Shown one piece after another: positions 14,099 through 56,527 of a stretch of 64,000 bases of DNA. Positions within the stretch are counted from its first letter, which is position 1, and every line of letters starts with the position of its first letter. The translations under genes and the position numbers were made by a program. The notes beneath the pieces are model-generated. The model saw nothing but the letters and a program-made list of their open reading frames with translations, was not told the origin of the DNA and did not search any database. The stretch spans positions 165,129 to 229,128 of the forward strand of contig JBAYVZ010000001.1 of the NCBI GenBank assembly GCA_041674285.1, given 5' to 3'. This DNA comes from Minisyncoccota bacterium (GTDB taxonomy: Bacteria > Patescibacteriota > Minisyncoccia > Phycocordibacterales > UBA9973).

Positions 14099-14121
14099 CT
14101 CATTATTTGATTATAAACTAT

Positions 14122-14811: not shown

Positions 14812-14861
14812 ATGTGGATTATATAGCAAAAAGGCATAAAAACCAATCGTAAGCATAAATA

Positions 14862-14898
14862 AAAACCAGTCCCAAGCACGACTTAGGACTGGTTTTAA
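14862..14898. terminator. Hairpin terminator downstream of the DoxX gene
   Basis: AAAACCAGTCC ... GGACTGGTTTT. Confidence 0.65.
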
Positions 14899-14913
14899 AT
14901 TGAGAAACTTAAA

Positions 14914-15276
14914 TTACAGGAACATAAGAAGTGCACCAATGAGGGCAACGTTCTTCATAAATGCGATTTGATCATTCATCTTCGCTTGAGCATCTTTTTC
15001 TTCCCAGAAATTGTGCATCATGAATGTAGTAGGCACCATGAACAATGTCAAAATCAATGCTGAAGCATTAGTATAAGCAGGACTTATAGCGAGCAAAATA
15101 CCTGCACCTCCGACTACTAGCATCACACCAGTGATGAGAACTGCCAATTCTGGCATAGGCACCTTCTTGAATTTTGCATAACCAGCAAGACTCTTTTGAT
15201 TTCTAAAATGATTAATACCTGAATAAAGAAAATACGCCCCAAACAAAACACGCCCTAATATTGCTAATGCCATCAT
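14914..15276 (-). CDS. DoxX-family membrane protein
   Basis: 120 aa with 3-4 TM helices and a typical DoxX N-terminus (LGRVLFGAYFLYSGINHF). Confidence 0.65.
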   Translation of the reverse strand: MMALAILGRVLFGAYFLYSGINHFRNQKSLAGYAKFKKVPMPELAVLITGVMLVVGGAGILLAISPAYTNASALILTLFMVPTTFMMHNFWEEKDAQAKMNDQIAFMKNVALIGALLMFL

Positions 15277-15380
15277 AATGATTTTGATTCTGCGGAATCA
15301 CTTCGCACACGCGATGCTATCCGATTAACTGTTAATATGCACATAGTATACCATACACATACTTGCATTCAACAAACATA

Positions 15381-15408
15381 AAAACCTCAGTAATTCTGAG
15401 GTTTTTAT
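15381..15408. terminator. Hairpin terminator downstream of gatB
   Basis: AAAACCTCAG-taattc-TGAGGTTTTT. Confidence 0.7.
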
Positions 15409-15425
15409 TGTAAAACTATTTAGAT

Positions 15426-35452: not shown

Positions 35453-36850
35453 ATGCCCCTTATACTCAAAAATACATTAACTAGAACAGAAGAAGTTTTC
35501 GAGCCTACCAATAAAGACTCTGTATCTTTGTATACCTGTGGGCCTACTGTCTACAACTATCCCCACATAGGCAATTACCGTGCATATGTATTTGGCGATA
35601 TCCTAAAGCGTACTCTCTCCTATCTTGGATACAATGTGAAGCACATCATGAATATCACAGACATAGACGACAAGACTATTCGTGACTCTATTGCTGGGGG
35701 CAAGACTCTAGCAGAATTTACAGAATTCTACACACAGGAATTTTACAAAGATATCGAAGCACTCCATATCGTACGTGCAGAAAAATACACAAAGGCTACA
35801 GACTACATAGATGAGATGGTGAAGATGATAGAGACTTTAATAGAGAAAGGTTTTGCATATAGAGGTGATGATGGCTCTGTTTATTTTGATATTGCAAAAG
35901 ACAAAAATTATGGACAACTCGTAAAACTTGAGAATAAGATTGATGTAAATTCTGACTGTGCCCTCGCTAATCAAGAAAAAAAGTATAATCGTATAAATAA
36001 TGATGAATATGATAAAGAGAACATTTCTGATTTCGCATTATGGAAAGCTTGGGATGAGAATGATGGTGAAGTATTCTGGGAGACCAGTCTAGGAAAAGGA
36101 CGCCCTGGCTGGCACATAGAATGCTCTGCGATGAGTATAGCCGAGCTCGGTGACCATATCGACATCCACACTGGAGGAGTCGACAATATGTTCCCTCACC
36201 ATGAGAATGAGATCGCCCAATCCGAATGCGCCACAGGACACCAATTTGTAAAATACTGGATGCACAATGAGCACCTGATGGTAGATGGCAAGAAGATGTC
36301 CAAGTCAGCGGGTAATTTCTATACCCTCCGAGATATCGAGAAACTAGGAATCACTCCGTTGGCATACCGTTATTGGCTCTATACGGGCAATTACGACACG
36401 AAAGTGAACTTTACGATTGATGCTGTGTCTGGTGCACAAACAGCCCTAGAACGCCTCTATACTGCATATAGAGATTTAGGAAACAATCTGGAAGTCGGAC
36501 TTCCAGATATGAGATACAAGACAAAATTCACTGAATTTATCAGTGACAATCTAAATACTCCAAAAGCCCTAGCCCTTGTGTGGGAATTGGTAAAGGATGA
36601 CAGTGTATCCCCTGCAGATAAAAAAGCGACTCTCCTTGATTTAGACAATGTTCTTGGTTTTGGTTTCGAGAATCTAAAAGAAGAGACTGATATAGAGATC
36701 CCAGCTGAAGTATTAAAATTGGCAGATGCTCGTACAGTGGCTCGCAATGAAAAGAATTGGTCCGAGAGCGACAAACTCCGCGACCAGATCAAAGATCTCG
36801 GCTACGAGATCAAAGACACAGATACCGGACATAAAATCTCTAGAATATAA
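35453..36850 (+). CDS. cysS: Cysteinyl-tRNA synthetase
   Basis: YTCGPTVYNYPHIGNYRAYVFGDIL (HIGH motif), KMSKS motif, 465 aa. Confidence 0.92.
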   Translation: MPLILKNTLTRTEEVFEPTNKDSVSLYTCGPTVYNYPHIGNYRAYVFGDILKRTLSYLGYNVKHIMNITDIDDKTIRDSIAGGKTLAEFTEFYTQEFYKDIEALHIVRAEKYTKATDYIDEMVKMIETLIEKGFAYRGDDGSVYFDIAKDKNYGQLVKLENKIDVNSDCALANQEKKYNRINNDEYDKENISDFALWKAWDENDGEVFWETSLGKGRPGWHIECSAMSIAELGDHIDIHTGGVDNMFPHHENEIAQSECATGHQFVKYWMHNEHLMVDGKKMSKSAGNFYTLRDIEKLGITPLAYRYWLYTGNYDTKVNFTIDAVSGAQTALERLYTAYRDLGNNLEVGLPDMRYKTKFTEFISDNLNTPKALALVWELVKDDSVSPADKKATLLDLDNVLGFGFENLKEETDIEIPAEVLKLADARTVARNEKNWSESDKLRDQIKDLGYEIKDTDTGHKISRI

Positions 36851-36886
36851 AAATCTCCCACAGGTCCGACCTGTGGGAGATTTTTA
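36851..36886 (+). terminator. Rho-independent terminator after cysS
   Basis: AAATCTCCCACAGG-tccgac-CTGTGGGAGATTT followed by a T-run. Confidence 0.8.
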
Positions 36887-36926
36887 TATTGTATTATGCT
36901 AGCACCTAGAATCTAACTACTAGAAC

Positions 36927-38606
36927 CTAATTCACTGCTTCGAGTTCAATAAAGAAAGTAGAACCTTTACCCATACCTTCTGAATTCACTCCTACATGAC
37001 CCTTGTGTGCATCTACTATTTCTTTTGCTAGATATAGACCGAGTCCTGATCCGCTAGTGTTCATACGGGCACCTTCACCACGAGCGAATTTCTGGAATAG
37101 CGTAGCCTTGATCTCTGGAGATACACCCATACCAGTATCTTTTATCTCTACGAGAACCTTATTGTCTTTATTAGATAAAGTTACTTCAATACTACCCTGT
37201 TTTGTGTATTTTATAGAATTGTCTATCAGGTTTAGGACCACTTGGCGGAGCTTTTCTTTATCTCCGTGAACCTTGTGATTCCCTGCATCTTCTGAGTAGG
37301 TTAGCTTTAATCCTTTTTTATTTGCAGTGATAGATAAATCTTCAGATGTGGTCTTTACTATCTCTGTCATACTGAAATCCACCATCACATACTTCATTCC
37401 ACCAGATTCAATTTTGGGCACATTGAGCAAGTCCTCTACGACAAGGGTCAGATTTTGACTAGATTGAAATATTCTTTCCACAGCTTCTTTTGCTTTTGGT
37501 CCAATCTCTCCAAAGTCACCCTCGACTACCATAGATGCATAACCCTTTATAGCCGTGAGCGGTGATCGGAGCTGATGTGAAGCCAGTGAAAGGAACTCTG
37601 TTTTTAACTTATCAACATTTATCAATTTCGCATTTGATTCTTCGAGCTTGATATTTGATTCTTCTAATCTCATTTTTGAAGATTCCAAATCTACAGACAA
37701 TTGCTCGATACGTACACGCTGATCACTCTCCCTCTTTAGATTTCTGTATAGGATAATAGAGAGTCCTAGTGTCAGAGCTACAGTCACAATAGTCAGCAAT
37801 GTATCTGCCCCTCCATTGATAAAGAATAATTGCCCACCCATGAGTATAACCAATCCTCCGACCAGATAGTGGGTACCTAGCATGTTGAAGTGGAATATAT
37901 CTAGCTCAAATACAGCATAGATAATAGCTATGAGGAAAAGAGGCATGGCAAACAAACTATACAGATTGTATTCATATACACCTGTCACAGATGCTATGTA
38001 TTCTGTAATTCCAAAAACAGACAAGAATAAAAATATAGACCCTAGAACGATCAAATCTGCCTTTTTATCTTCCGGAGGTTGCTCGATAAAAAATGCTCTG
38101 ATTATATACCCCAATATTGTAAGACCGATGATACCCTCAATTACAAGCTTGTAGATATCTAAAGTATTATTATTTAATGCTTCGCAAAATGAATGATCAA
38201 AACCAATAACGGAATTATTTGTAATTGTAATCACAAAAGGAACAACAAGAGCTAGTATAAATAATATTTTTATATAATTATTTATATCTCTTTCATAGAT
38301 AAACGTAAGTACAAAATAGAGAGACAAAAGAAAGAAAACAATCTCGATATAAGGCAAAACAGACCAGAAAGAATAAACAAGGTCGTAATTTGTTGATGTC
38401 CAAATAACAACATCGCCAATTAGCCAAACACAGAAAGACAAAATAAACGATAAAAATAGTTTAGAAAATAAGTTAAATTTAGATTTAAATAAAATAAACA
38501 AAGACAATACCAATGATAGCAACATTGGAACTATGTGTGAGTATTTTGCCAAAAGTTCAAGACTTCCCCCAGTCACGCTTGTGCAAGTATTAATTATTTC
38601 ATTCAT
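36927..38606 (-). CDS. Sensor histidine kinase with a multi-pass membrane N-terminal domain
   Basis: About 7 TM helices, a coiled-coil, H-box (LASHQLRSPLTAIKGYASMV) and HATPase N/G1/G2 boxes (NLIDNSIKYT, DTGMGV, GSGLGL). Confidence 0.85.
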   Translation of the reverse strand: MNEIINTCTSVTGGSLELLAKYSHIVPMLLSLVLSLFILFKSKFNLFSKLFLSFILSFCVWLIGDVVIWTSTNYDLVYSFWSVLPYIEIVFFLLSLYFVLTFIYERDINNYIKILFILALVVPFVITITNNSVIGFDHSFCEALNNNTLDIYKLVIEGIIGLTILGYIIRAFFIEQPPEDKKADLIVLGSIFLFLSVFGITEYIASVTGVYEYNLYSLFAMPLFLIAIIYAVFELDIFHFNMLGTHYLVGGLVILMGGQLFFINGGADTLLTIVTVALTLGLSIILYRNLKRESDQRVRIEQLSVDLESSKMRLEESNIKLEESNAKLINVDKLKTEFLSLASHQLRSPLTAIKGYASMVVEGDFGEIGPKAKEAVERIFQSSQNLTLVVEDLLNVPKIESGGMKYVMVDFSMTEIVKTTSEDLSITANKKGLKLTYSEDAGNHKVHGDKEKLRQVVLNLIDNSIKYTKQGSIEVTLSNKDNKVLVEIKDTGMGVSPEIKATLFQKFARGEGARMNTSGSGLGLYLAKEIVDAHKGHVGVNSEGMGKGSTFFIELEAVN

Positions 38607-38609
38607 ATT

Positions 38610-39410
38610 TTATTTAATATTATTTTTAATTAAAGAGAGGTGCGAATACCAAAAATCTTCAGTTTCAATATCCATGGGTGGAATAGGGACGATCAGAGGT
38701 TTAAGACCTGTCAAATTTATAACTTTTTCCAACGCAGGCAAAACAACTTCCTTAGTAAAATCACCTTCACTGTCAGTAGAAACTAGAAAATTTTCAAATA
38801 ATATACCGTGGCAAACAAAAAATAAAAAAAAGTTAAAATAAACAAAATGTATAGAATCAGCATTGTTTTCTTTATACCAACTTGATTCATCATGAAAATA
38901 AATATCACTTAAACCATACAATCCAAACAACTTATGATGAAAATCTATAAGTGATTCGTCCCATTTAGTTTTAATTTCTTTAATTTTTTTACCGTTATAA
39001 ATATTAAAGTCTACTATATTTATTTTTTCAACAATATCATCTCCCTTTTTATCTAAACCGTCACTGACATGAATTTGACCCAATGAATGCTTATACTTAT
39101 TGTTTGATGTAAATTTATCATCATAATACTCAAAAAATATAGGCTTCAAATTGTTTTCACGCGCCAAACCAACAAAAGCTCTACACTCGTGATTGGGTGT
39201 AGCTAACTGCCTAGCAATAACAGCACAATTTTTGTCATTTAAAATTTCAGGTATTTCTCCAGCAAAAAGATCTTTGATCTTATTAACCAAATCAACATCT
39301 TTTTGCCTTTCTTCAAGTAGTCTTAGCGCATCAGATAAAGGAGTATACACTACTTGATTAAAGATATTGTGATCCGACATTATAGTATTGTAATCGCCGA
39401 TTGAAGACAT
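38610..39410 (-). CDS. Hypothetical cytoplasmic protein (266 aa) translationally coupled to the histidine kinase
   Basis: Its stop lies 4 bp from the kinase start. No motif recognised. Confidence 0.4.
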   Translation of the reverse strand: MSSIGDYNTIMSDHNIFNQVVYTPLSDALRLLEERQKDVDLVNKIKDLFAGEIPEILNDKNCAVIARQLATPNHECRAFVGLARENNLKPIFFEYYDDKFTSNNKYKHSLGQIHVSDGLDKKGDDIVEKINIVDFNIYNGKKIKEIKTKWDESLIDFHHKLFGLYGLSDIYFHDESSWYKENNADSIHFVYFNFFLFFVCHGILFENFLVSTDSEGDFTKEVVLPALEKVINLTGLKPLIVPIPPMDIETEDFWYSHLSLIKNNIK

Positions 39411-39413
39411 ATA

Positions 39414-39833
39414 TTATTTCTTTTTATTAACCTTTACTTCTTCGACTACAGGAATAACTATTTCTTCTTCTGCAGGCTCCGGGACCACGCATACCTCGCC
39501 TGCGATATCTTCTTCTGTACACTCAGTCTTTTCCGCCTGTATCGCTCCGGACTCTATAGCTGAAGTACAATCTTCATTTACACAAGCAGAAAAATCACGA
39601 GCTTTGATCGTGTATTGATTATAATAAGACAAATTATTTGGAGGACATTCTCCGTCTATGGAGCAGTCTCGATAGAAGCAAGTTTCTTTTGTATTATCAC
39701 AAGCAGTATCGACTATAAAATTATAGTCTTTTTTGAAATAGAAAAAATAAAAAGAAGTAGCGATAACAACAGCACAACTTATTAATAATATATAGAGAAA
39801 TACATTATGACTTTTTGGTTCTTCTTCAGGCAT
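39414..39833 (-). CDS. Membrane-anchored Cys-rich small protein (139 aa, about 10 Cys, acidic tail)
   Basis: N-terminal TM helix followed by a C-x-n-C-rich segment (CDNTKETCFYRDCSIDGEC ... CVNEDC). Confidence 0.4.
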   Translation of the reverse strand: MPEEEPKSHNVFLYILLISCAVVIATSFYFFYFKKDYNFIVDTACDNTKETCFYRDCSIDGECPPNNLSYYNQYTIKARDFSACVNEDCTSAIESGAIQAEKTECTEEDIAGEVCVVPEPAEEEIVIPVVEEVKVNKKK

Positions 39834-39897
39834 GTATTTATTTTACCATAGAATGCAAAACAAAAACATACAACTGGGTTATAAACTGAATAATAAG

Positions 39898-39906
39898 TGT
39901 TATAAT
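39898..39906 (+). promoter_or_regulatory. Extended -10 (TGtTATAAT) 6 nt before the ATG at 39913; a possible leaderless promoter
   Basis: TGTTATAAT directly upstream of the start codon. No -35 was evaluated. Confidence 0.25.
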
Positions 39907-39912
39907 GTTTAC

Positions 39913-40806
39913 ATGGAACAGAACAATTTTACAGGTAAAAACATAAATGAAAATTCGATAAATAATGCTCAAAAAAAATTAGATAATGCGCAAGAACATC
40001 AAGCGATTGAAAATAGTAATTCATACAGAGAACCCACAGAGCATGAAGTATTACTGATAAGTAAATCTAAGGAGGTAGTCAGAAAAGAATTATCAAGATT
40101 AGGGGTTGAGGCTAGATTAGATGAATATAAAATTAAATTTTTAGACAAGAACAAGGGTACAGGTAGCTACAATTCAGACTCAAGAATCATAGAAATAGAC
40201 AGTAAATATAAACCTGATACTATTCTAAATACCAAATATTATCTATTTAGAATACTCTCTAAATTAAACCCGGAGTCGAAAACGATAAGTAATTTTAAAA
40301 CAATAATCCATGAAATGATACATGCAAAATCATTTCATAAATACAAGATTGAGAATAATGAAGTATCTTCTTACAGGAATGGATATTTAACAAAGAATGA
40401 TAAGGGTGCATACTTCCGAGGACTAAATGAAGCTATAACAGAAAAAACTGTTTTAGATATTTTAAACGATGAAAATAAAAAAATTAAAATTAATTTAAAT
40501 ATACTAGAAACAAAATACAGAGTAGAATTAAAAATTATAGAAAATATAGTAAAAAAGATCGCAAAAAAAGAAGGAAAGGAAGAAAAAGAAATCTGGGATA
40601 TCTTTAAAGAAGGTCATTTTTCGGGTAACATGATGCATTTAAGAAAAATTGAAGAAAATTTTGGAGAGGGGTCACTCAGAATATTGGCAAAAATGGGCTC
40701 AAATGAAAAACTAACGAGTAAAGAAAATTTGCTTTGCTATATATATTTTTCAACAAATTCTATCTTTATTAAAAAGACAATATTAAATAAATTTAAAAAT
40801 GAATAA
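39913..40806 (+). CDS. Hypothetical Asn/Lys-rich protein with an HExxH motif (IIHEMIHAKSFH); putative zincin-like metallopeptidase
   Basis: HEMIH followed by a third His five residues downstream. Start trimmed to the internal Met, since the track start would overlap the divergent gene. Confidence 0.35.
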   Translation: MEQNNFTGKNINENSINNAQKKLDNAQEHQAIENSNSYREPTEHEVLLISKSKEVVRKELSRLGVEARLDEYKIKFLDKNKGTGSYNSDSRIIEIDSKYKPDTILNTKYYLFRILSKLNPESKTISNFKTIIHEMIHAKSFHKYKIENNEVSSYRNGYLTKNDKGAYFRGLNEAITEKTVLDILNDENKKIKINLNILETKYRVELKIIENIVKKIAKKEGKEEKEIWDIFKEGHFSGNMMHLRKIEENFGEGSLRILAKMGSNEKLTSKENLLCYIYFSTNSIFIKKTILNKFKNE

Positions 40807-41161
40807 TAATCTTAAAATATACAAAGTAAAAAACAAGGAATACAAGAACTATTTTGTACCAAAAGAAAAAAGAGCTCCTGCTTTCGGTCAAGCATTTCCA
40901 TATGAAAAAAAAGGAGGATACGCTGAAGTCAGAAATGACTTAAATCCGATAGTGAAGAGGTTTGTCACAGAGCATGAGTTGTATCACCTCACAGACAACT
41001 CAAAATGGCTTGGAAGATTAGGAATGGAAATTAGGGCAAATATTATTCCAGGCATAAAAAATCCGATTGGTTTTATATATACTATTATTTATACAATATT
41101 TTCAAAAGAGAGAATAAAATTATACTACGAGATGATATTTAAAAAGTCGCACATGAAATAA
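40799..41161 (+). CDS. Small HExxH protein (VTEHELYHL); ImmA/IrrE- or SprT-like minimal metallopeptidase (tentative)
   Basis: HELYH motif. It overlaps the upstream gene by 8 bp, so the two probably form an operon. Confidence 0.35.
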   Translation: MNNNLKIYKVKNKEYKNYFVPKEKRAPAFGQAFPYEKKGGYAEVRNDLNPIVKRFVTEHELYHLTDNSKWLGRLGMEIRANIIPGIKNPIGFIYTIIYTIFSKERIKLYYEMIFKKSHMK

Positions 41162-41198
41162 ATTATCATGTACGACTTATCATCAGAAAAAATTAATT

Positions 41199-41513
41199 TT
41201 ATTTAGTCAGCTTAATTCCATTAATCTTGATGAACCAATTGATCGCTTTTTTAGCGATTGGTTTTAAAAATGGAGCAATTTCTAAAATAGAAGCACCAGG
41301 CCTCCCTAAGAAACTGTAATAAGCACGAATAAACAAAATTTTACCTTTTTCGGTTCCTTGGGCCAAAATTTTATCTCTCCAAACTCTCAATGAATCTGTA
41401 ATATAATCATCCTGCCCGTAACAAGCAGTAACTACAAAACATTTAAAATTTGGACTAAAATTAGGTCCATCATTAGAAACTAAAGGTTTTTTTTGTTTTT
41501 CAACCTCTTTCAT
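41199..41513 (-). CDS. Hypothetical protein (104 aa)
   Basis: ORF only. Confidence 0.3.
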   Translation of the reverse strand: MKEVEKQKKPLVSNDGPNFSPNFKCFVVTACYGQDDYITDSLRVWRDKILAQGTEKGKILFIRAYYSFLGRPGASILEIAPFLKPIAKKAINWFIKINGIKLTK

Positions 41514-41620
41514 GTCTTTTTCTCCTTTCTAGATTTTTGTATTATTCTTTAAGCAATTAAAAGAACCTTAATCTTTAAAAAGTATACTACATAAAAATTT
41601 AAAAGTCAATATGAAGGATA

Positions 41621-42145
41621 TTAAAGATTATATTTCCATCCTGGTTGCCATTCCCATGGAGTCTTTATGTATTCCTCTAACTCTACGCCATTTATAAAAT
41701 GCTCTAGACCTAGTTGAGTTGCGCGATGGCCGATGATTACAATATTTTCATAATTAGATTTTTTTAAATCGGCGATAAAACTTTCCATACGAGCCATTGC
41801 ATCTTTAACACTCTCACCATTCATGTATGGAGTATCAATATGATCAATCAGACTACCAAACACTAGTTTTTTATCTCCGCCCTCTAGGTCTCCGTAATTG
41901 TATTCTCGAAGTCTTGAATCAGAAAAAGTAGGAATATTACGTTCACCAAAGATTAATTCTGCTGTATCTATAGCTCTCTGTGAGTCAGAAGTAAAAACCG
42001 CATCGAATAAAACATCAGCGTACCGAGTACGATCATTAATCCCCTGTTCTCTACCTTTTTCAGATAAAGGAGAGTTCCTCCATCCAGAAGCCAGTCCAGA
42101 TTCATTGTCTACACTAGTTTTATGTGATTCAAATATAATTTTCAT
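41621..42145 (-). CDS. Histidine phosphatase superfamily protein (phosphoglycerate-mutase-like) with a degenerate RHG motif
   Basis: SDSQRAIDTA and a C-terminal IIGHRATQ motif fit the family. The N-terminal catalytic region reads ESHKTS instead of RHGE. Confidence 0.55.
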   Translation of the reverse strand: MKIIFESHKTSVDNESGLASGWRNSPLSEKGREQGINDRTRYADVLFDAVFTSDSQRAIDTAELIFGERNIPTFSDSRLREYNYGDLEGGDKKLVFGSLIDHIDTPYMNGESVKDAMARMESFIADLKKSNYENIVIIGHRATQLGLEHFINGVELEEYIKTPWEWQPGWKYNL

Positions 42146-42147
42146 AT

Positions 42148-43068
42148 TTACATTAGCAAGAACACACTTCCTACTATCATCACCACGATGGCGATGATTT
42201 TTGGGATTAGGACTTTTTTGGTGATGTTCTCGTTCACTATATGTGGGAAGAATTTTGTCCCGATGATAGTCAAGAATAGTACTATAGCAGGCTGGAATGT
42301 ACCTACGAGATATACCATAGTCACAGGTGCTAGCAATAGTGCAAAGTTTGTTAAAAGATTACCAGAGATAGTAGCCAGTTCACTCACTGTATTTACGATA
42401 AAAATCTTTACACCACCCTTGTGGTTCATATTCATAAATTCTTCTCTGTATTTAGGCACGAATAGATATATTATGAGGCCAGATATTCCGAGGCCAATAT
42501 ATTCCCAGAATGATGACACCCAGAAGTCCCCTTCGATGGTCACATATTTAAATATAATCCCAGATAGAGCTACTAGCACGCAAGCGATGAGCATATAGAA
42601 TACTGGCTTTCTCTTTACTTGTCTCTTTTCTGTACTAAAATCAATAGATAGGAATACTAATCCTAGGAGCATGATGACAGTACCTAGGATCTGATTATTA
42701 TTGAGTGTCTCCCCAAGGAATAGATAGCCAAATATGTAGCCAAACATGGGAACAGTCAGGAACCATGGGGCCACATTTGATACATCTTCAATCTCCAATG
42801 CATATAGATACAATACTATCCATACGATAGTGATGAATCCAGTGAGTCCGAGTAGCAATGCATCTGTTATCGATATCTCAAATAATCCTCGCACAAAAAA
42901 TGCGATAAAGAATGCAATGAAGAATCCTATGAGACTAGAGAACAGTACTAGCCCTCCAGAACTGTGTTCCTTTTCCCTATCTGAATATTTAGCTATTAGA
43001 TATTGATCGGCTATATTGACCAATGCCCATAAAAATGGAGCCCCCAATGCAATTAAAAACCAATTCAT
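42148..43068 (-). CDS. EamA/DMT-superfamily permease (10 TM)
   Basis: Two repeated 5-TM halves. The N-terminal LIALGAPFLWALVNIADQYL resembles an EamA domain. Confidence 0.6.
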   Translation of the reverse strand: MNWFLIALGAPFLWALVNIADQYLIAKYSDREKEHSSGGLVLFSSLIGFFIAFFIAFFVRGLFEISITDALLLGLTGFITIVWIVLYLYALEIEDVSNVAPWFLTVPMFGYIFGYLFLGETLNNNQILGTVIMLLGLVFLSIDFSTEKRQVKRKPVFYMLIACVLVALSGIIFKYVTIEGDFWVSSFWEYIGLGISGLIIYLFVPKYREEFMNMNHKGGVKIFIVNTVSELATISGNLLTNFALLLAPVTMVYLVGTFQPAIVLFLTIIGTKFFPHIVNENITKKVLIPKIIAIVVMIVGSVFLLM

Positions 43069-43167
43069 ATGAGTATATTATATCACACAAATAAAATACT
43101 ATAATTTTGACAAAAAAATATTTCAGGATATAATGCGCAAAAACCCACAATTTAATATAAAAAACCA

Positions 43168-43989
43168 ATGAAAGAGTATTTTGTAATTGAAGGACAAAAT
43201 GAAGGTCCTACTAGTGTGATTATGGCAGGTATTCATGGCAATGAACCTTGCGGAGTAAGAGCTTTTAAAAAGCTAGAACACAAATTAAAGATCAAGTCAG
43301 GAAAAGTAATTTTTCTTTTAGGTAATCCTGTTGCCCTGAAAGACAACGTTCGATTTGTTGAACAAAACATGAATCGAATGTTTGCCGAGCAAAACAAGGA
43401 GTACACAGAAGAAGAGAAAAATTCCTACGAGTACCGCAGGGCACAATTCATCAAAATGTTCTTAGATGAAGCAGATGCCCTGTTAGACATCCACTCCACA
43501 CGAAACAAAAGTCTTCCATTTGTTTTTACAGAAGGCAATGCTTTTGATATCGTAAATTATTTCCCAAAAGAAGTTTCCCGTATCGTTATAAACATAAACG
43601 AATACGAACCAGGTGGCACTGATGGGTACATGTACGAGAAAGATAAAATTGGTATTTGTATTGAGTGTGGTCAACACGACAGCAAAAATGCTGACAAAGT
43701 AGCCATAAAGTCCATAATGATTTTCCTGCAAAAACGCGGGCATATAAAAGATTCTACAAAGAAAAAATTACCAAAAGAAATTGTTATGGTAAATAGTATT
43801 TATTTTACGAAGACAGACAATTTCAAAATGGCAAAACAATTTGTAGATTTTGAAAAAATCAAAATGGATCAATTAATAGGCACAGACGGCAATGAAGAAA
43901 TCCGGGCAAAACAAAAAGGATTAATCATGTTTGCTCATGATTGCGACAAGATCGGATCTGAAGCATTCTTGATGACTAAAAAGATATAA
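43168..43989 (+). CDS. Succinylglutamate desuccinylase / aspartoacylase-family zinc hydrolase (AstE/AspA, M14-like)
   Basis: The motifs GIHGNEPCG and LDIHST match the family's Zn-binding His/Glu and downstream His. Confidence 0.65.
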   Translation: MKEYFVIEGQNEGPTSVIMAGIHGNEPCGVRAFKKLEHKLKIKSGKVIFLLGNPVALKDNVRFVEQNMNRMFAEQNKEYTEEEKNSYEYRRAQFIKMFLDEADALLDIHSTRNKSLPFVFTEGNAFDIVNYFPKEVSRIVININEYEPGGTDGYMYEKDKIGICIECGQHDSKNADKVAIKSIMIFLQKRGHIKDSTKKKLPKEIVMVNSIYFTKTDNFKMAKQFVDFEKIKMDQLIGTDGNEEIRAKQKGLIMFAHDCDKIGSEAFLMTKKI

Positions 43990-44010
43990 AAGCCAAATGA
44001 TTAAATTTAG

Positions 44011-44046
44011 CACCCCATAAAGAGAATTCTTTATGGGGTGTTTTTA
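44011..44046 (+). terminator. Rho-independent terminator
   Basis: CACCCCATAAAGAGAATTCTTTATGGGGTG followed by TTTTT. Confidence 0.75.
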
Positions 44047-44098
44047 TTGCAAAACAATAGTATTTTGATACAATGCTTTTATCTATATGGGATAGTAT

Positions 44099-44214
44099 CC
44101 CGTTAGAGATGTGTTTGTTATTTTTTTAATCTTGGAACAATAAAAGAAAAAGTCGTATTTTTAATATAAATTAATCAGATACGGAAATGTAAACATTTCC
44201 TATCTCTAACGGGA
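44099..44214 (-). repeat. TIR-bounded intergenic element, subtype 1 (copy I), 116 bp, inverted
   Basis: CCCGTTAGAGATGTGTTTGT ... ACGGAAATGTAAACATTTCCTATCTCTAACGGG-ATG. Its right terminus abuts the arginase-family start codon. Confidence 0.85.
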
Positions 44215-45104
44215 TGGTAGATTCAATAATCAGTGCAAAGAAAATCGAAGATGCAGATGTAGTCATACTATCAGCTGCATATGAAAAGACAGCTTCTAGT
44301 CGCAAAGGTACAGCCAGCGGTCCATCAGCAGTTATGAAGATGCTCGACAGCAAGCTTGAGCTTTTTGACCGCAACTACAAGAAGAATGTATGCGAATATG
44401 TAAAGATAGGTCACAAAGATGTGGGCAATATCAGCAAGATGACTCCACAAAAAGCATTAGACAAGATAGTGGCAGAATCTACAAAGATCTTAGATAAAGA
44501 TAAATTTGTATTCCTCCTCGGTGGAGAGCATTCTGTATCTCTAGGACTCCTCACTGCCCTCTCTAAAAAAATAAATCCAAAAGACGTAACAGTAGTCCAG
44601 ATAGATGCACACTGCGATCTACGCAATGATGACAGTGACTACAGTGATGATCCTACAAATCTGGCTCATTCATGTGTCCTACGCCGTGTAAACGAGCTAG
44701 GTTACCCATTAGTACAGGTAGGTATCCGTACATATTTCAAAGGTGAATACGAATACTTCTCTGACCCAAAGAACAATATCAAGACTTTTGAATGGGGCAA
44801 TGATAAAAAAGTACCGACAGTAGAGGAAATAGTAAAATCAATCAAGACAAAGTATGTATATATAACTATCGACGTAGATGGATTTGATCCGGCTCATATG
44901 CCAGGCACAGGCACATCAGTCCAAGGGGGTCTCGAGTGGTGGTACGGAGTAGAACTACTAGAAAAGATTGTGAAATCAAAAGAACTCGTAGGTGCAGACA
45001 TAGTAGAAGTCTCCCCTATGAAAGACTCCGTCCTGACAGAGTACGGAGCAGCCCAACTACTCTACGGAATGGTAGCTCACAAATACAGAAACAAATTAAA
45101 ATAA
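44214..45104 (+). CDS. Arginase/agmatinase/formiminoglutamase-family ureohydrolase (likely agmatinase)
   Basis: Mn-binding motifs GGEHS, QIDAHCDLRND and ITIDVDGFDPAH, and SVQGGL. The decarboxylase gene elsewhere in the window favours agmatinase. Confidence 0.75.
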   Translation: MVDSIISAKKIEDADVVILSAAYEKTASSRKGTASGPSAVMKMLDSKLELFDRNYKKNVCEYVKIGHKDVGNISKMTPQKALDKIVAESTKILDKDKFVFLLGGEHSVSLGLLTALSKKINPKDVTVVQIDAHCDLRNDDSDYSDDPTNLAHSCVLRRVNELGYPLVQVGIRTYFKGEYEYFSDPKNNIKTFEWGNDKKVPTVEEIVKSIKTKYVYITIDVDGFDPAHMPGTGTSVQGGLEWWYGVELLEKIVKSKELVGADIVEVSPMKDSVLTEYGAAQLLYGMVAHKYRNKLK

Positions 45105-45110
45105 AAAGAA

Positions 45111-45146
45111 AAAATCTGCAAATCAATTTCTTGATTTGCAGATTTT
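45111..45146 (+). terminator. Rho-independent terminator
   Basis: AAAATCTGCAAATCAA-tttc-TTGATTTGCAGATTTT followed by TTAT. Confidence 0.75.
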
Positions 45147-45155
45147 TTATTTTCG

Positions 45156-45638
45156 TCACATTTTTTTAGGTACTTGCCATTTTTTACTTTGGCAATTATA
45201 CACATAATACAGTTCATTCTTTCCTACAGCTCTCATCATTAACTGAAAATTAAAGCTGTCTAAAAGGTAGACCATATCTTGTGGATAGTACCATCCATAC
45301 GGATCATTTGTAGGATTTACAATCTCTTCAAAAATAAAAGAATTACTCACACTATCAAATCCTTTATTTTCAAATAGGACAGAGAAAATTCTGTCATTCC
45401 TAAAATTCACCACTGCATAGTCCCCGCAGGCAGTATGCCATTCATAGGCAACGTACGCAGATCTTTTGTAAAACGGAGTAGTATCTCTACGGTAAATCTG
45501 CACGTCCTGATTATCGTACAGCAATCTAATCTGGGCACCAAAATTAAAGGTGGCCACAGATGATGGAGTGACATTTGTTTTTGAGCTCATGCAAGAGCTG
45601 AAAAACAAGCAAAAAGGTAAAATGTATAAGTATTTCAT
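45156..45638 (-). CDS. Putative lipoprotein (hypothetical)
   Basis: Lipobox-like LFFSSC after an N-terminal hydrophobic segment. Aromatic-rich mature region. Confidence 0.45.
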   Translation of the reverse strand: MKYLYILPFCLFFSSCMSSKTNVTPSSVATFNFGAQIRLLYDNQDVQIYRRDTTPFYKRSAYVAYEWHTACGDYAVVNFRNDRIFSVLFENKGFDSVSNSFIFEEIVNPTNDPYGWYYPQDMVYLLDSFNFQLMMRAVGKNELYYVYNCQSKKWQVPKKM

Positions 45639-45695
45639 ATTGGTAAGAATTTTTTAACACAATACCACAATACACACAAAATGTCCATACAAACA

Positions 45696-45737
45696 AAAAT
45701 CCTCGCAAGGACGGTCCTTGCGAGGATTTTTGTTTTT
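45696..45737. terminator. Bidirectional hairpin terminator
   Basis: AAAATCCTCGCAAGG-acggt-CCTTGCGAGGATTTT with flanking A/T runs. Confidence 0.75.
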
Positions 45738-46486
45738 TATATTTTACTTCCTACTTCTATGCCTAGATTTTTTGATGCATTTTGTCTCTGTAATACTATC
45801 TCGATAAATCTTTTATCTTTATATCCGGAGCTACCTTTTGTAAAGTATGCCTTGCCGTCTTTTGGTACATCGGTGAGTCTCTCGATAAAATCATAATCAG
45901 ATGTAGAGTTTCTCAATTCTTGATCGTGCTCGTATACGATAGTAGTCTTGCAGTTACCAAAGCAATCCACATACCAGACAAAATTGTCATTACCAAAATC
46001 AAAGATCTCCCCTATTTTTGCATTTATATCTTTACCTTGGAAAATCCAATTTGTAAGATGAGGTAGATATTCATAGCTTCGGAATTGTGATTCAGATATT
46101 CTCCTAGCTTCCTCCTCTGGTAGGAACTGACTACATACAGTATATACATCAGTCTCCTGTATTTCCGACATGAGACCGAGCTTCTTTGCGAGAGTAAAAC
46201 AATTTGGCGTACCTACTACGGTGATGTTTCCAGCCTTACCAAAACAAAACGGTATACCATTTGGGTATTTATCTTTAGTTCCGCGTGGAGCTACATTCAC
46301 CACGATGATACCCGATGTACCACTGTAGGCATCCAGTGCATCGACTAGACAGCCGGCAGCTTCTAGATCGTGTGATACTCCTATGAAATTTAAATTAGCA
46401 CTATCACCTATTAGTGATTTGTATCTTATCTCTTGGCGTCCACGAGCATTTGCATCAGCACAGTCTGAAATAATAGTTATCTGCAT
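45737..46486 (-). CDS. SAM hydrolase / SAM-dependent halogenase-like protein (DUF62 family); tentative
   Basis: N-terminus MQITIISDCAD (compare the TDFG start of DUF62 proteins) and a C-terminal VDCFGNCKTT motif (compare D-x-FGN-x-x-TN). About 250 aa. Confidence 0.4.
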   Translation of the reverse strand: MQITIISDCADANARGRQEIRYKSLIGDSANLNFIGVSHDLEAAGCLVDALDAYSGTSGIIVVNVAPRGTKDKYPNGIPFCFGKAGNITVVGTPNCFTLAKKLGLMSEIQETDVYTVCSQFLPEEEARRISESQFRSYEYLPHLTNWIFQGKDINAKIGEIFDFGNDNFVWYVDCFGNCKTTIVYEHDQELRNSTSDYDFIERLTDVPKDGKAYFTKGSSGYKDKRFIEIVLQRQNASKNLGIEVGSKI

Positions 46487-46489
46487 ATA

Positions 46490-47512
46490 TTATCCTAGGT
46501 ATTTTGCTATCAATTCATTTGCCTTTGCAGGATTTGCTTTTGCCTCTAGTAGTGCAGTCATCATCAGTGGAGCTACGATTGTAGCATCACTCTCGACTAC
46601 GAACATAGGTGTATCTTGGGTGAGTTTATCCCAAGTGATTTTTTCATTTGGAGTAGCTCCAGAGTATGATCCGTATGATGTAGTAGAATCAGAGATCTGA
46701 CAGAAGTATGCCCATGGCTTTGCAGGTAGCTCCATGTCGTATTTAAGAGATGGCACTACGCAAATTGGGAAATCTCCGGCTATACCTCCACCGATTTGGA
46801 AGAATCCGATACCAGCACCTTCTGAAAGCTTTTGATATTGATCATAAAATTCACCCATGTATTCAATACCTGACTTTGCGATTAGGGCACTCGCATCACC
46901 ATGCTTTACATGAGATGCAAAGATGTTTCCAAAAGTAGAATCTTCGTATCCTGGGACTACTATAGGTAGATTGTGTTCTGCTGCAGCTAATAGCCAGCAT
47001 TCTTCAGCTTTACCTTCATGCTTTTCCTTGTCTAGGGCCTGGATAAGCTCATAGAAATATTCATGCCAAAAACGGCGCTCATTGTTCTTTGTAGCATTTT
47101 CCCACATTGGTACGATATGCTTTTCAACAGCACGAAAAGCCTCATCCTCGGGGATACTAGTATCTGTCACACGGCGCATACGATTCTCCAGGATCTTTGT
47201 ATCGTCTTCTTTTGTAAAGTAACGATAATCAGGAAAGTCTTTATAGCTACTATGCGCAACAAGGCGAAATAGTGACTCTTCTAAGTTCGCACCCGTCACA
47301 GACATGCCATGTATTAGTCCTGCACGGATAGCCGGAGCCAGAGTGATACCTAGCTGAGCAGAAGACATAGCTCCAGCCACAGCCCAAAACATCTTTCCCC
47401 CATTCTCTATATGGCGCCAATATGCGATAGTCGCATCACGAGTAGCACGTGAATTAAAGTTCTTGTAATTCTTAAGGATAAATTCTAATGTTGGTAATTG
47501 TGTGTTTTCCAT
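46490..47512 (-). CDS. Deoxyhypusine synthase-like protein (DHS / homospermidine-synthase-like NAD-dependent aminobutyl transferase family)
   Basis: AGAMSSAQLG...GLIHGMSVTGANLEESL aligns with the DHS NAD-binding core. 340 aa. Confidence 0.55.
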   Translation of the reverse strand: MENTQLPTLEFILKNYKNFNSRATRDATIAYWRHIENGGKMFWAVAGAMSSAQLGITLAPAIRAGLIHGMSVTGANLEESLFRLVAHSSYKDFPDYRYFTKEDDTKILENRMRRVTDTSIPEDEAFRAVEKHIVPMWENATKNNERRFWHEYFYELIQALDKEKHEGKAEECWLLAAAEHNLPIVVPGYEDSTFGNIFASHVKHGDASALIAKSGIEYMGEFYDQYQKLSEGAGIGFFQIGGGIAGDFPICVVPSLKYDMELPAKPWAYFCQISDSTTSYGSYSGATPNEKITWDKLTQDTPMFVVESDATIVAPLMMTALLEAKANPAKANELIAKYLG

Positions 47513-51523: not shown

Positions 51524-51556
51524 AATCTCTCATTTATAAATGAGAGATTTTATTTT
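51523..51556. terminator. Bidirectional hairpin terminator between fmt and the convergent permease gene
   Basis: AAAATCTCTCATTT-ataaa-TGAGAGATTTT followed by ATTTT. Confidence 0.75.
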
Positions 51557-52764
51557 CTTGTAAATGCTTCTTTTGGAGAGAGTCCTGCTGCGCGGTGTGC
51601 TGGCCACCATCCAGATACGAAACCGATAAGGATAGAGAATCCCATGATGAGCAGTACGAACCAAAACGGTACTACGAATAGTTCTAGAGACTCCCCTCCG
51701 AATCTTCTAGCCACAGCAGAGAGCAGGAAGTTAAACAGCTGTCCCAATCCAAATCCGATAGTCACACCTCCGACACCCCCCAGGAATCCCATAAATGATG
51801 CTTCTACGAGGAACAGATTTCGGACATCATAATCAGTAGCTCCGATAGATTTCAATATACCCACCTCGTATATACGTTCCAGGAATGCCACGAGCATTGT
51901 ATTGAACATTCCAATAGCTGACACGATCAGAGCTGTCACCCCAAAAACTCCAAGAACCATTGTGATGATATTGGTGATTTTACGAGCTTGGGTCACCAAG
52001 TCAATACGAGCAGACACAAGCAAGCCTTGTGAGATTAATTTATCACGCAGACCTTCAAGCGTATCAATATCTTTTGCTTTTACCAATGCCTTGCGGTAAA
52101 ATGGCGGATCTCTAGGAAATATTGTGGAATACACCATAGATGTAGGTTGCAAGTTTTCATCAACAACTACACCTTGCAGTGGTAGCGTCTCCACAAAAAA
52201 AGTTTCCTCTTCTGCTAGGTCGACTTTTTCATCTTGAAAAGAAACTTTTAAAGTAAAAGGTTTATCAATCAAAATAGGTTCTATTGGTAAACCTAGAGCA
52301 GATAATGTCTGGCTAGATACTATAGTTCCTTTATTATTTATATCTAAAACCTTACCAATGTTTGGAGTTAACCCAGCAAGACGAAAATAAGATGGCTCAA
52401 TTATCTGAGTATTTACTATCAAACCAGACGTACCCTCAGCACTTATTTCCCCTGGAAATTCAGCTACAGGACTCACCTCGGCTACATCTGGGGAGCTTCT
52501 TAATTCATCGATAAAAGATTTTTTAATTAAAATATTACTCTCTGTAGGATAAGATACTTCCATGGTTATCAGGGAGTCCTCTGTAGTCACCAATTTGCCG
52601 ATCAATATATACTGCAATCCATATCCAAGAGAAACGAGCAGTAGCACCGTCGCAATACCCACAGACATACCCATGATCGTCAAAAAAGCTCTCTGCGGTT
52701 TCGTACGGAAAGATCTAAAAGAAAGAGTTATAAGCTCATTAAATTTTAATTGCTTGTCTAACAT
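51550..52764 (-). CDS. ABC transporter permease, FtsX/MacB-like (4 TM plus a large extracytoplasmic domain)
   Basis: N-terminal TM helix, a periplasmic domain of about 200 aa, and a C-terminal 3-TM FtsX-like domain (GVFGVTALIVSAIGMFNTM ... ILKSIGAT). Confidence 0.75.
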   Translation of the reverse strand: MLDKQLKFNELITLSFRSFRTKPQRAFLTIMGMSVGIATVLLLVSLGYGLQYILIGKLVTTEDSLITMEVSYPTESNILIKKSFIDELRSSPDVAEVSPVAEFPGEISAEGTSGLIVNTQIIEPSYFRLAGLTPNIGKVLDINNKGTIVSSQTLSALGLPIEPILIDKPFTLKVSFQDEKVDLAEEETFFVETLPLQGVVVDENLQPTSMVYSTIFPRDPPFYRKALVKAKDIDTLEGLRDKLISQGLLVSARIDLVTQARKITNIITMVLGVFGVTALIVSAIGMFNTMLVAFLERIYEVGILKSIGATDYDVRNLFLVEASFMGFLGGVGGVTIGFGLGQLFNFLLSAVARRFGGESLELFVVPFWFVLLIMGFSILIGFVSGWWPAHRAAGLSPKEAFTRK

Positions 52765-52770
52765 AGTTTA

Positions 52771-54207
52771 TTATATTTTTTTCAAGTTTACATCTTGAAC
52801 TTCAGAGACACCACTAGAAACAGTTGGATTTGCAGTAGAACCACTCTTTACATTATCAACTATTATACCCTCGAGCACAAGCTCCAATTTATCACCAAAT
52901 ATTTTTGCTGCACGAAAAGATAAACCTAACCCCCCTCTGGAGATAGATAGTGTCAGGAGATCGACAACTTTTGTTCTTGATATAAAGTTACGTATACGAT
53001 CAGAGACTATCTGAGTGAGGGCTTTAACCTCGGGGTTAGTGAGCTCGCGAGTATACCCCTCTACGAGCCAATTACGGAGATTTTGAACTTCATAGAACAT
53101 ATCCACTTCTGGATTCTTTTCCATCATCCTATGAATTCTCCTCATATCACGCCTTCTAGATATCACATCTTCTACGTAGAACAAAACTTTGTCAGCCTTT
53201 TTGTCTTTGAGGCCCAGACCATTTTGATTAAATGATGCCAACAATAACCTCTTGAAGTCTATAGTATCTATCTTATTGGCAAATCTGTATTTTACGATAG
53301 ATTCGAATCTAGACATCTCTTCTAGTGAATATCCACTCATGAGGAAGTTTGCTAACTGATGAGCAGTTATATCATCCCCTGTCGTCTCATCAATTTTTTC
53401 ATCTTTTTTAGGATCAATTAGTGGTTCTATTTTAGGTGGAGAGACTGTCTTTTTATCGTCCACAAATGAAAGCTGGGCATTCATATGCGACACGACAGAC
53501 TCTTCTAGGGTCTTTGGTGTTACGTGTTCCACTTCAGTAACAGAACCATCTTTCATGTGATAGATAGTCTTTACATCACGCAGACTCCAGGCTTCGTGGG
53601 TAACCATGATTATAGTTCTACCATCTTTTTCATTTAGCTCTTTCAAAAATTCCAAAACTTTTTTAGCGTTTACAGAGTCGAGGTTTCCGAGTGGTTCGTC
53701 GGCGATTATTATCGGTGGGTCATTAGCGAGAGCTCTTGCTATACCTACACGCTGCTGTTGACCTCCAGACAATTCAAAAGGGTAACGATTTGCATATTCC
53801 GTTAGAGCCAGACGTTCTAATAATTTTGCAGCTTCTACATCAGCTTTTTCTGATGATATACCTACGAATAGCATAGGCAATGCTACATTTTTCAAAACAG
53901 TTAAAGATGGTACGAGGTTGAACTGCTGAAAGACTATACCTATCCCAGTCTGTCGAAATATAGCCAATTCTTGATTAGTCAGTGTCGAGATATCTTTATC
54001 ATTTATATGTATAGTACCTTCTTGGAAGTGATCAATTCCAGATATAGCGTAGAGCATGGTTGTCTTACCACAACCAGATGGACCGAAAAAAGCGACATAG
54101 TCACCTCTGGCTATATCTATGGTGATATTCTTTAGGGCTTTTACTTCAATATCTTTCCCCTTTTCATACCACAAACTTACATTGTTTAACTTAATTATTG
54201 GTTCCAT
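52771..54207 (-). CDS. ABC transporter ATP-binding protein (MacB/LolD-type) with a C-terminal extension of about 240 aa of unknown function
   Basis: Walker A GPSGCGKTT, Q-loop, signature LSGGQQQRVGIARAL, Walker B IIIADEPLGNLD and H-loop VTHE. About 240 further residues are unrecognised. Confidence 0.8.
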   Translation of the reverse strand: MEPIIKLNNVSLWYEKGKDIEVKALKNITIDIARGDYVAFFGPSGCGKTTMLYAISGIDHFQEGTIHINDKDISTLTNQELAIFRQTGIGIVFQQFNLVPSLTVLKNVALPMLFVGISSEKADVEAAKLLERLALTEYANRYPFELSGGQQQRVGIARALANDPPIIIADEPLGNLDSVNAKKVLEFLKELNEKDGRTIIMVTHEAWSLRDVKTIYHMKDGSVTEVEHVTPKTLEESVVSHMNAQLSFVDDKKTVSPPKIEPLIDPKKDEKIDETTGDDITAHQLANFLMSGYSLEEMSRFESIVKYRFANKIDTIDFKRLLLASFNQNGLGLKDKKADKVLFYVEDVISRRRDMRRIHRMMEKNPEVDMFYEVQNLRNWLVEGYTRELTNPEVKALTQIVSDRIRNFISRTKVVDLLTLSISRGGLGLSFRAAKIFGDKLELVLEGIIVDNVKSGSTANPTVSSGVSEVQDVNLKKI

Positions 54208-54637
54208 GCATTTTGTCTGTGAATAAAATTATTTCTTTAGGCATTATCTCGCCTTTTGCAAGATACCCATCTACTCCCAATTTCAATGCCTCTTCTTTCA
54301 AGATTTCATCTTTTTGACCAGAATAAATAATTATATTTATATTGGAATAATCTTTATTTTTCTTGATACGACTGATGAACCCCAAAGATAATGCCATCTG
54401 GTACGCAGGAGCACTGCACCCTGCCCCCTTTGAAGACATCAGAACATCTAGGAATATTGTATCGGGTCGAGTCTTTGGGTCTTTTAATATATCTTCTGCT
54501 TTCTCAAGAGAAGAGACCATAATTATTTCGTATTTATTACTCTTGCCGTGTATCCAGAATATATCACGAAAATATATACGCATCATTTCGTCATCATCCA
54601 CAAGTAGTATTTTTATTTTCTTTTGATTATTTTCCAT
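54191..54637 (-). CDS. Stand-alone response-regulator receiver (CheY-like) protein
   Basis: KILLVDDDEMMRIYF with an Asp in FLDVLM and a conserved Lys near the C-terminus. No output domain. It overlaps the ABC ATPase gene by 17 bp. Confidence 0.7.
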   Translation of the reverse strand: MENNQKKIKILLVDDDEMMRIYFRDIFWIHGKSNKYEIIMVSSLEKAEDILKDPKTRPDTIFLDVLMSSKGAGCSAPAYQMALSLGFISRIKKNKDYSNINIIIYSGQKDEILKEEALKLGVDGYLAKGEIMPKEIILFTDKMHGTNN

Positions 54638-54681
54638 TTAGATTAAAATTATTTTTACTATTTAATTATAACAAATATAGA

Positions 54682-56520: not shown

Positions 56521-56527
56521 ATATTTA

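Follow-up and report, generated by a model that had tools for sequence, protein, structure and literature searches.

We analysed a 64,000-nt stretch of a Minisyncoccota bacterium genome (contig JBAYVZ010000001.1, positions 165,129 to 229,128; hereafter the window, with coordinates counted from its first base) that contains a sensor histidine kinase and a set of poorly annotated neighbours. The minus strand encodes an EamA/DMT-family transporter (42148..43068, 306 aa), a membrane-anchored Cys-rich protein (Cys139; 39414..39833, 139 aa), a cytoplasmic protein of an undescribed family (U266; 38610..39410, 266 aa) and the kinase (36927..38606, 559 aa), of which U266 is the constant partner; the stop-to-start spacers within the Cys139, U266 and kinase series are 3 nt each. 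Between EamA and Cys139 lie two plus-strand genes for proteins with HExxH motifs, HEx297 (39913..40806) and HEx120 (40799..41161), and two minus-strand genes, one for a CFI-box-like small protein (CFI104; 41199..41513) and one for a histidine-phosphatase superfamily protein (41621..42145). The start of HEx120 overlaps the end of HEx297 by 8 nt, CFI104 is convergent with HEx120, and Cys139 and HEx297 diverge across a 79-bp spacer. The five open reading frames (ORFs) on which an initial annotation of this DNA was built (the kinase, U266, Cys139 and the two HExxH proteins) are all present in the ORF list with the same coordinates and strands. That annotation had read them as one self-contained sensing-and-proteolysis module, possibly horizontally acquired. 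Comparison with related loci (designated by L numbers below) instead identifies the kinase and its partners as a conserved, uncharacterised module of Patescibacteria, into which, in this strain, an unrelated AT-rich stretch with a putative metallopeptidase cassette has been inserted. No account of the module turned up in full-text literature searches, which is not proof that none exists.

The evidence for the module comes from gene order. A scan of one genome per species, in which six-frame ORFs were searched with the window proteins, gave 60 loci from Paceibacteria; synteny was counted only in loci with enough flanking sequence, and the counts are conservative, the gene calling being crude. 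The kinase, U266 and Cys-rich genes occur together in about 50 species, usually with EamA; the recurring order is EamA, Cys-rich protein, U266 and kinase, often followed, as in the window, by convergent genes for cysteinyl-tRNA synthetase (CysRS) and CorA. Of 55 loci, 49 have the kinase downstream of U266, with a distance of at most 60 bp in 41 of them, and a Cys-rich gene and an EamA gene are each found upstream of U266 in 30 of 50; the window EamA protein itself scores 65.4 bits against PF00892 (cutoff 28.2). The four genes stay together even where their order is permuted (L008, L010, L014, L038, L042, L056 and L060), which is strong evidence of a functional link. Across the 14 loci carrying all of them, the median identity to the window is 53-65% for the four module proteins and 62% for CysRS; the correlation between the identities of the module proteins and those of CysRS is uninformative, as the values span a narrow range.

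A second scan, of metagenomes, used a 7-sequence U266 subgroup that is about 30-35% identical to the window protein, and gave 80 more distant loci. Their order is Cys-rich protein, F4, U266 and a kinase of the same family, where F4 is a polytopic membrane protein of about 190 aa that has no Pfam match and mostly replaces EamA. The kinase follows U266 in 29 of the 40 informative distant loci, with F4 upstream in 16 and a Cys-rich gene upstream in 10 of 37. Judged by gene order and divergence, the kinase, U266, the Cys-rich protein and usually EamA are an old, vertically inherited signalling module of Patescibacteria (the candidate phyla radiation, CPR). Since the kinase, U266 and Cys139 are syntenic across genomes and diverge about as CysRS does, horizontal acquisition of this trio is unsupported, and there is no sign of a recent one, though the U266 gene is AT-rich (GC 0.296). 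The idea of horizontal acquisition remains plausible solely for the insertion. What stands of the initial description is the kinase with two partners, which are co-oriented, tightly coupled and of unknown families.

In the kinase both HisKA (PF00512, 49.5 bits, residues 335-402) and HATPase_c (PF02518, 92.7 bits, residues 448-556) are matched, and the phosphoacceptor H344 is conserved in at least 90% of the sequences in a 50-sequence alignment. Membrane segments (residues 24-288) are followed by a coiled coil and then by these two domains, which are the sole Pfam domains of the protein, the membrane half having no Pfam match. Hydropathy averaged over 50 homologues predicts about 9 membrane segments, not the seven first proposed. 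Two cysteines, C8 and C141, are conserved at 90% or more, and both are in loops predicted to face outward. The kinase of L062 is organised differently (9977-13078), with the catalytic core in a separate 282-aa ORF after a 283-aa polytopic ORF and a 98-aa ORF.

The Cys-rich protein has an N-terminal anchor followed by a Cys scaffold, C-x6-C-x2-RDC-x5-CPPN ... NEDC ..., as seen in an alignment of 43 homologues; the scaffold has no Pfam match. The window protein has 9 Cys, slightly fewer than the about 10 first counted: 8 belong to the domain, for which the family consensus has 10, and the remaining one is part of the anchor. The same two family-conserved Cys are missing from Cys139 and from its orthologue in the closest relative (L003, 9578-9997), and a pair lost jointly in both is therefore the pattern expected of one disulfide pair. 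The Cys-rich proteins of the distant loci have the same anchor and scaffold plus an acidic tail, and their Lys/Arg-rich N-termini favour, as a prediction, an external Cys domain. A pilin-like role of Cys139 was rejected by inspection, as no class III signal motif is present.

U266, like Cys139, HEx297 and HEx120, has no significant match in Pfam, NCBIfam, PHROG or PADLOC, and it has no PDB sequence match. A word-indexed search found 398 homologues, the best 120 of which are 54-100% identical, and all those bearing a name are from Paceibacteria, Nomurabacteria, Parcubacteria or Patescibacteria bins. An exhaustive profile search extends the family to 835 cluster representatives (50% identity) at E <= 1e-3 and 355 at E <= 1e-30. 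The AlphaFold (AF2) model is confident (predicted local distance difference test score 89.8, predicted template modelling score 0.87) and has four helices at the N-terminus and, beyond them, a doubly wound alpha/beta domain. Foldseek searches of this model against PDB and BFVD gave nothing significant (best E 0.0075, TM-score <= 0.34). The weak matches in both libraries are mostly to HUP-class Rossmann-like proteins, including the photolyase N-domain, the KdpD USP domain (E 0.046, TM-score 0.23, non-significant), pantothenate synthetase, FAD synthetase, cytidylyltransferases and QueC. The HUP signatures HxGH, SGGxDS and USP G-x2-G-x9-G(S/T) are absent from the U266 family alignments by reading, and thus neither structural similarity nor signature motifs place U266 in the HUP class. 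The motifs that the family does conserve are ATPNxE (after the first strand), E-x3-DKF (after the second), DFHH and LFENF; about ten polar residues are near-invariant and located on loops after beta-strands, with E94, D98, H158 and E215 as the acidic and His residues among them. Based on the model, we describe U266 as an undescribed alpha/beta family with a nucleotide-binding-like fold that is weakly similar to Rossmann/HUP proteins.

Some domains are fused with U266 or encoded beside it. A C-terminal SET domain is fused to U266 in L064, L069 and L087, and an N-terminal GNAT domain in L138 and L063; the fusions in L064, L069, L087 and L138 hold the same operon position as U266 alone. In 12 further loci SET is encoded by a gene of its own, placed between U266 and the kinase or immediately beside U266 (SET genes in U266-kinase operons include L042 10797-11351 and those of L079, L086, L088, L107, L116 and L132), and separate GNAT genes are found upstream of U266 in several loci. 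L130 has a fused MFS + PlsC-acyltransferase + GNAT protein directly before U266, which is then followed by the kinase. All that is left of U266 in L062 is a remnant about 55 codons long, and a gene for an LPG_synthase_C (MprF C-terminal-like) protein takes its place. Some Paceibacteria have two U266 paralogues (L012 and L055, from the same metagenome-assembled genome; L060 10001-12520), one as part of a Cys-U266-kinase set and the other with an EamA gene directly after it. Other genes near the module include those for an agmatinase (which passes the TIGR01230 cutoff), a deoxyhypusine/homospermidine-synthase-like protein and an aspartoacylase/AstE-like protein near EamA in the window (43168-47512), an agmatine deiminase upstream of EamA in L062 (2404-3453), and an S-adenosylmethionine (AdoMet) decarboxylase in L063, whose gene overlaps the start of the GNAT-U266 gene.

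From the observed linkage, fusion patterns, conservation and fold class we infer a complex, a ligand and a direction of control, and propose that the conserved module is a membrane sensor system. The Cys-rich protein, EamA or F4, U266 and the kinase would form one membrane sensor complex, in which the input reaches the kinase via its membrane domain. The Cys-rich protein and the membrane partner would pass the signal to that domain, possibly by thiol chemistry or transport, and U266, which probably binds a nucleotide, would regulate or adapt the kinase from the cytoplasmic side, in some lineages working with a SET methyltransferase or a GNAT acetyltransferase. The output would go to a single-domain receiver, whose gene comes right behind that of the kinase in a few genomes and has another location in the present one. 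The overall architecture has, in our judgement, about an even chance of being right, and its details much less. A more specific version, which we think improbable, is that U266 represents a new class of cytoplasmic kinase partner that docks on the kinase or the receiver and, together with SET or GNAT proteins, tunes signalling by lysine methylation or acetylation. If true, this would be an adaptation layer like CheR/CheB in logic, chemically different, and specific to ultra-small CPR bacteria.

Several known systems offer parallels. In KdpD (cytoplasmic KdpD and USP domains, four transmembrane segments, HisKA and HATPase_c), a cytoplasmic HUP-class nucleotide-binding domain modulates a membrane kinase which, like the one studied here, lacks a large external sensor. 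The KdpD USP domain is among the weak, non-significant fold matches of U266, so the likeness is one of analogy and not of membership; moreover, the KdpD domain is part of the kinase polypeptide and has USP motifs, whereas U266 is a separate protein in which no USP motif was seen. The kinases of UhpB/UhpC, PhoR/PhoU/PstSCAB, DcuS/DctA and BceS/BceAB, which are polytopic or lack a sensor, rely on a membrane protein resembling a transporter, and that of the Pho system relies on the cytoplasmic adaptor PhoU as well. The module is similar in that EamA and the cytoplasmic U266 are linked to a kinase; it differs in that the partner families are not homologous, F4 replaces the transporter in the distant loci, and there is an additional Cys-rich anchored protein. 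Small membrane-anchored proteins encoded in the kinase operon and controlling the kinase via its membrane domain are known in YycH/YycI (WalK) and LiaF (LiaS), from which the Cys-rich protein differs by a scaffold without Pfam match. A gene for a cytoplasmic enzyme is found beside that of a multi-transmembrane kinase without soluble sensor domain in CqsA/CqsS and LqsA/LqsS; unlike CqsA and LqsA, U266 is not a pyridoxal-phosphate-dependent acyltransferase by Pfam, NCBIfam or fold search. In its proposed working, the module most resembles the accessory- or transporter-dependent kinases (UhpB/UhpC, PhoR/PhoU/Pst, WalK/YycHI) and KdpD; it is a member of none of these systems, its partner families not being homologous to theirs.

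A number of observations weigh against the proposed sensor complex. The evidence for the complex and for the role of U266 within it is gene linkage, and U266 is found without an adjoining kinase in L063, L066, L068 and L055 (the last in the genome of L012). All fold matches of U266 are non-significant with no HUP signature motif seen, and its near-invariant polar residues are no less to be expected of an enzyme than of an adaptor. For Cys139, the positive-inside rule gives an ambiguous topology in Paceibacteria, and its domain could be cytoplasmic and metal-binding. The receiver of the window is not clearly orthologous to those that follow the kinase elsewhere. As for the breadth of the module, the distant loci are mostly metagenome contigs, and the CPR-wide claim is carried by the named Paceibacteria, Nomurabacteria and Parcubacteria matches.

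The enzyme view is the main rival of U266 as a kinase regulator: U266 would be a metabolic or envelope-modifying enzyme that produces or modifies a small amine, a polyamine or a lipid head group, EamA or F4 would move the compound, and the kinase and the Cys-rich protein would sense it, either as a synthase-transporter-sensor circuit like CqsA/CqsS or as an envelope-homeostasis loop. About ten near-invariant polar residues on post-strand loops would be in keeping with this view, as would the constant link to a DMT transporter in Paceibacteria, the fusion to or proximity of the amine-modifying SET and GNAT domains, the MFS + PlsC-acyltransferase + GNAT protein of L130 and the LPG_synthase_C protein of L062. 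Several neighbours described above point the same way: the AdoMet decarboxylase in L063, the agmatine deiminase in L062, and the agmatinase and deoxyhypusine/homospermidine-synthase-like genes of the window. However, these polyamine and lipid neighbours are each found in one or a few loci, and the presumed agmatinase family is close to the module in only about 10 of the 60 loci. U266 is linked most tightly and most generally to the kinase and not to the transporter, which F4 mostly replaces in the distant group, and no catalytic family can be assigned to U266. We regard the enzyme view as possible and on the whole doubtful.

We consider it unlikely that U266 is instead the output of the kinase, as a non-canonical phosphoacceptor or effector in place of a response regulator. 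As the initial annotation had stated, no receiver adjoins the kinase in the window, and the only one, by a scan with five textbook receivers and the window's own, is the stand-alone receiver at 54191..54637 (minus strand, 148 aa; PF00072, 44.3 bits). The end of its gene overlaps with the start of one for an ABC ATPase, in an operon different from that of the kinase. In other genomes a receiver adjoins the kinase in only 1 of 51 Paceibacteria loci and 3 of 32 distant loci, which, with the translational coupling of U266 to the kinase and the near-invariant E94, D98, H158 and E215, would be expected if U266 took the place of a receiver. However, a stand-alone receiver of 125-135 aa directly follows the kinase in L018, L089, L091 and L127, and, judged by reading gene maps, a receiver does so in L069 as well; these point to ordinary His-Asp transfer, and orphan kinases with distant receivers are common. 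The order of secondary-structure elements in U266 is not that of a (beta-alpha)5 receiver, and no receiver is among its fold matches. Since stand-alone receivers adjoin the kinase in some relatives, the kinase is an orphan only by gene position in most genomes; a receiver directly beside it is found in a minority. The receiver of the window is about 25% identical to the kinase-following receivers of other genomes, and we retain it as a candidate phosphoacceptor of the kinase.

The genomes of CPR bacteria (Patescibacteria) are tiny and encode few regulators, and little is known of how these bacteria perceive a host or the environment. A module that outlasts genome reduction, diverges about as slowly as its tRNA synthetase neighbour and consists almost entirely of unannotated families is therefore a strong candidate for the role of a core sensing device in the CPR. 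Structural and biochemical work has a well-defined target in the U266 family, which comprises 835 clusters, has a confident model and gave no structural relative in the fold searches; its recurrent fusion to SET and GNAT supplies a concrete hypothesis for such work.

The two HExxH genes belong to the insertion. The closest relative of the window, L003, shares 92-94% nucleotide identity with it on both flanks, and in BLASTN alignments a single position of L003, 9557, corresponds to both 39854 and 42148 of the window. Because both flanks meet at one L003 position, the window carries 2,293 extra bases (39855-42147); in L003 the EamA stop is separated from the Cys139 start by a 20-nt spacer. The extra bases contain the genes for HEx297, HEx120, CFI104 and the 174-aa histidine phosphatase. 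The stretch is thus absent from a close relative and also deviates in base composition, with a GC of 0.298 as compared to 0.371 for the window, and on these two grounds we identify it as a strain-specific AT-rich insertion. HExxH genes beside U266 are absent from 58 of the 60 genome loci, and L062 is the only other Paceibacteria locus with genes of the insertion beside U266. The four ORFs have no match to recombinase families in Pfam or NCBIfam, the flanks show no direct or inverted repeats and no target duplication, no tRNA gene is near (the nearest is at 17678), and HEx297 and HEx120 have no relatives among viral contigs. A single horizontally acquired sensing-and-proteolysis module made up of the kinase trio and the two HExxH proteins is highly improbable: the adjacency of the genes, their divergence from the 79-bp spacer, the AT-rich and Asn- and Lys-rich nature of the whole stretch and the same juxtaposition in L062 would fit such a module, but L003 has an intact trio without 39855-42147, the 58 loci lack HExxH genes, the cassette of L145 has no Cys-rich gene at the flank where the window and L062 have one, and the trio is syntenic and diverges like its housekeeping neighbour. 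The earlier reading is corrected accordingly, in that the protease-like genes make up a strain-specific cassette outside the signalling system.

HEx297, HEx120 and CFI104 recur as a unit: the window, L062 and L145 have all three, arranged alike relative to one another. The upstream context differs in L145, where there is no Cys-rich gene at the cassette flank that has one in the window and L062. By this distribution the HExxH pair and CFI104 are a cassette of their own, separable from the kinase module, which may encode a metallopeptidase system. For HEx297, a putative metallopeptidase of the gluzincin type, there are only four known relatives in total, two of them database proteins and the others from L062 and L145, and there is no family or PDB sequence match. 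Residues H133, E134 and H137 of its HEMIH motif (133-137) and L171-N172-E173 are invariant in 4 sequences, down to 28% identity; the LNE is located 34 residues past the second His of HEMIH and is a candidate for the third metal ligand of a gluzincin. For the start of the gene, the gene caller chose 39913 in L001, giving 297 aa, and a codon farther upstream in L002, giving 317 aa, and we prefer 39913 over the alternative at 39832.

For HEx120, 6 sequences are available, 53-66% identical to the window protein (a narrow set and a weak test of conservation), in which H59, E60 and H63 of HELYH (59-63) and E77, R79, A80 and N81 of E77-x-RAN are invariant. The HExxH residues are thus conserved in all homologues found, 4 of the long and 6 of the short protein. 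The AF2 model of HEx120, built from a 5-sequence alignment, is of low confidence (predicted local distance difference test score 65.8) and has a four-stranded sheet ahead of two motif-bearing helices. A fold search with it gave nothing significant; the top two matches, an M61 aminopeptidase and PprI/IrrE, have E values of about 1 (1.0 over 48 columns for PprI/IrrE). There is no Pfam or NCBIfam match at E <= 1, and a PDB profile search gave no relevant match. The ImmA/SprT-like label first attached to HEx120 is left unconfirmed by these family-profile and fold searches. Compared with M1/M61 gluzincins (with their 'NE' motif), minigluzincins and ImmA/IrrE (M78), HEx297 shares HExxH and the later LNE, and HEx120 has HELYH, a Glu 14 residues later and a modelled sheet before the motif helices; the two proteins differ from them in having no significant Pfam, NCBIfam, PHROG or PDB-sequence match and, for HEx120, no significant fold match. 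CFI104 (104 aa, with the sequence CFVVTACYG...) scores 31.5 bits against NF041770 (cutoff 40) over profile positions 1-68 of 69, a similarity to the CFI-box-CTERM domain that we take as real, if sub-threshold.

The histidine-phosphatase gene starts 2 nt after the EamA stop, and its product matches Pfam His_Phos_1 with 89.7 bits. The gene is absent from L003, L062 and L145 and has an ordinary GC of 0.366, and may therefore be a separate acquisition from the cassette. Its best NCBIfam matches are alpha-ribazole phosphatase and PGAM-like families, all below cutoff. A SixA-like phosphohistidine phosphatase that would act on the kinase was considered and rejected, with no SixA model among the 18 families listed and the gene absent from other loci.

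The compositional claim made for the block, that it is AT-rich and Asn/Lys-rich, is borne out within the window. GC is 0.28-0.32 at 38 to 42 kb; the GC of HEx297 (0.265) is the second-lowest among the gene-sized ORFs compared (lowest 0.263), and its Asn+Lys fraction of 0.248 is three standard deviations over the window mean (0.141, standard deviation 0.035).

A scan for the motif TGnTAnAAT-N5-8-ATG found 9 occurrences in the window. On the minus strand, the ATG is in 6 of 6 the first codon of an ORF of 80 aa or more, Cys139 (39833) and EamA (43068) among them, and on the plus strand 1 of 3 ends at 39913, the start of HEx297. Gene starts with TGnTAnAAT 5-8 nt before the ATG are at 16838, 18912, 24548, 39833, 39913, 43068 and 48138, which suggests that leaderless transcripts are common in this genome. 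The element upstream of HEx297, TGtTATAAT 6 nt before the ATG at 39913 (TGTTATAAT at 39898-39906), is present as first noted, and the proposed leaderless promoter agrees with this window-wide pattern and is credible. An extended -10 element, TGGTAAAAT (39840..39848, minus strand), located 6 nt before the Cys139 ATG, is a candidate promoter of a leaderless Cys139-U266-kinase transcript, and is retained in the EamA-Cys139 spacer of L003. EamA has a promoter-like element of the same scan, TGATATAAT, at 43077-43085. A hairpin with a perfect 20-bp stem (36845..36889), found by a terminator scan between the convergent kinase and CysRS genes, is likely a bidirectional terminator marking the 3' end of the operon.

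The receiver gene is part of a minus-strand gene run (51550-63949) that encodes, in order, a 2,473-aa repetitive surface-type protein, a 612-aa membrane protein, the receiver, the ABC ATPase and a 404-aa membrane protein, which we read as an FtsX-like permease. L003 has its own 3.4-kb island (12526-15850) between the kinase and the tRNA synthetase gene, absent from the window, with ORFs of 253, 267 and 443 aa and a Cys-containing 80-aa ORF; the 443-aa ORF looks radical-SAM-like, and our guess is that the island could be a peptide-modification cluster. Because L003 has an island of its own too, the neighbourhood accumulates strain-specific islands.

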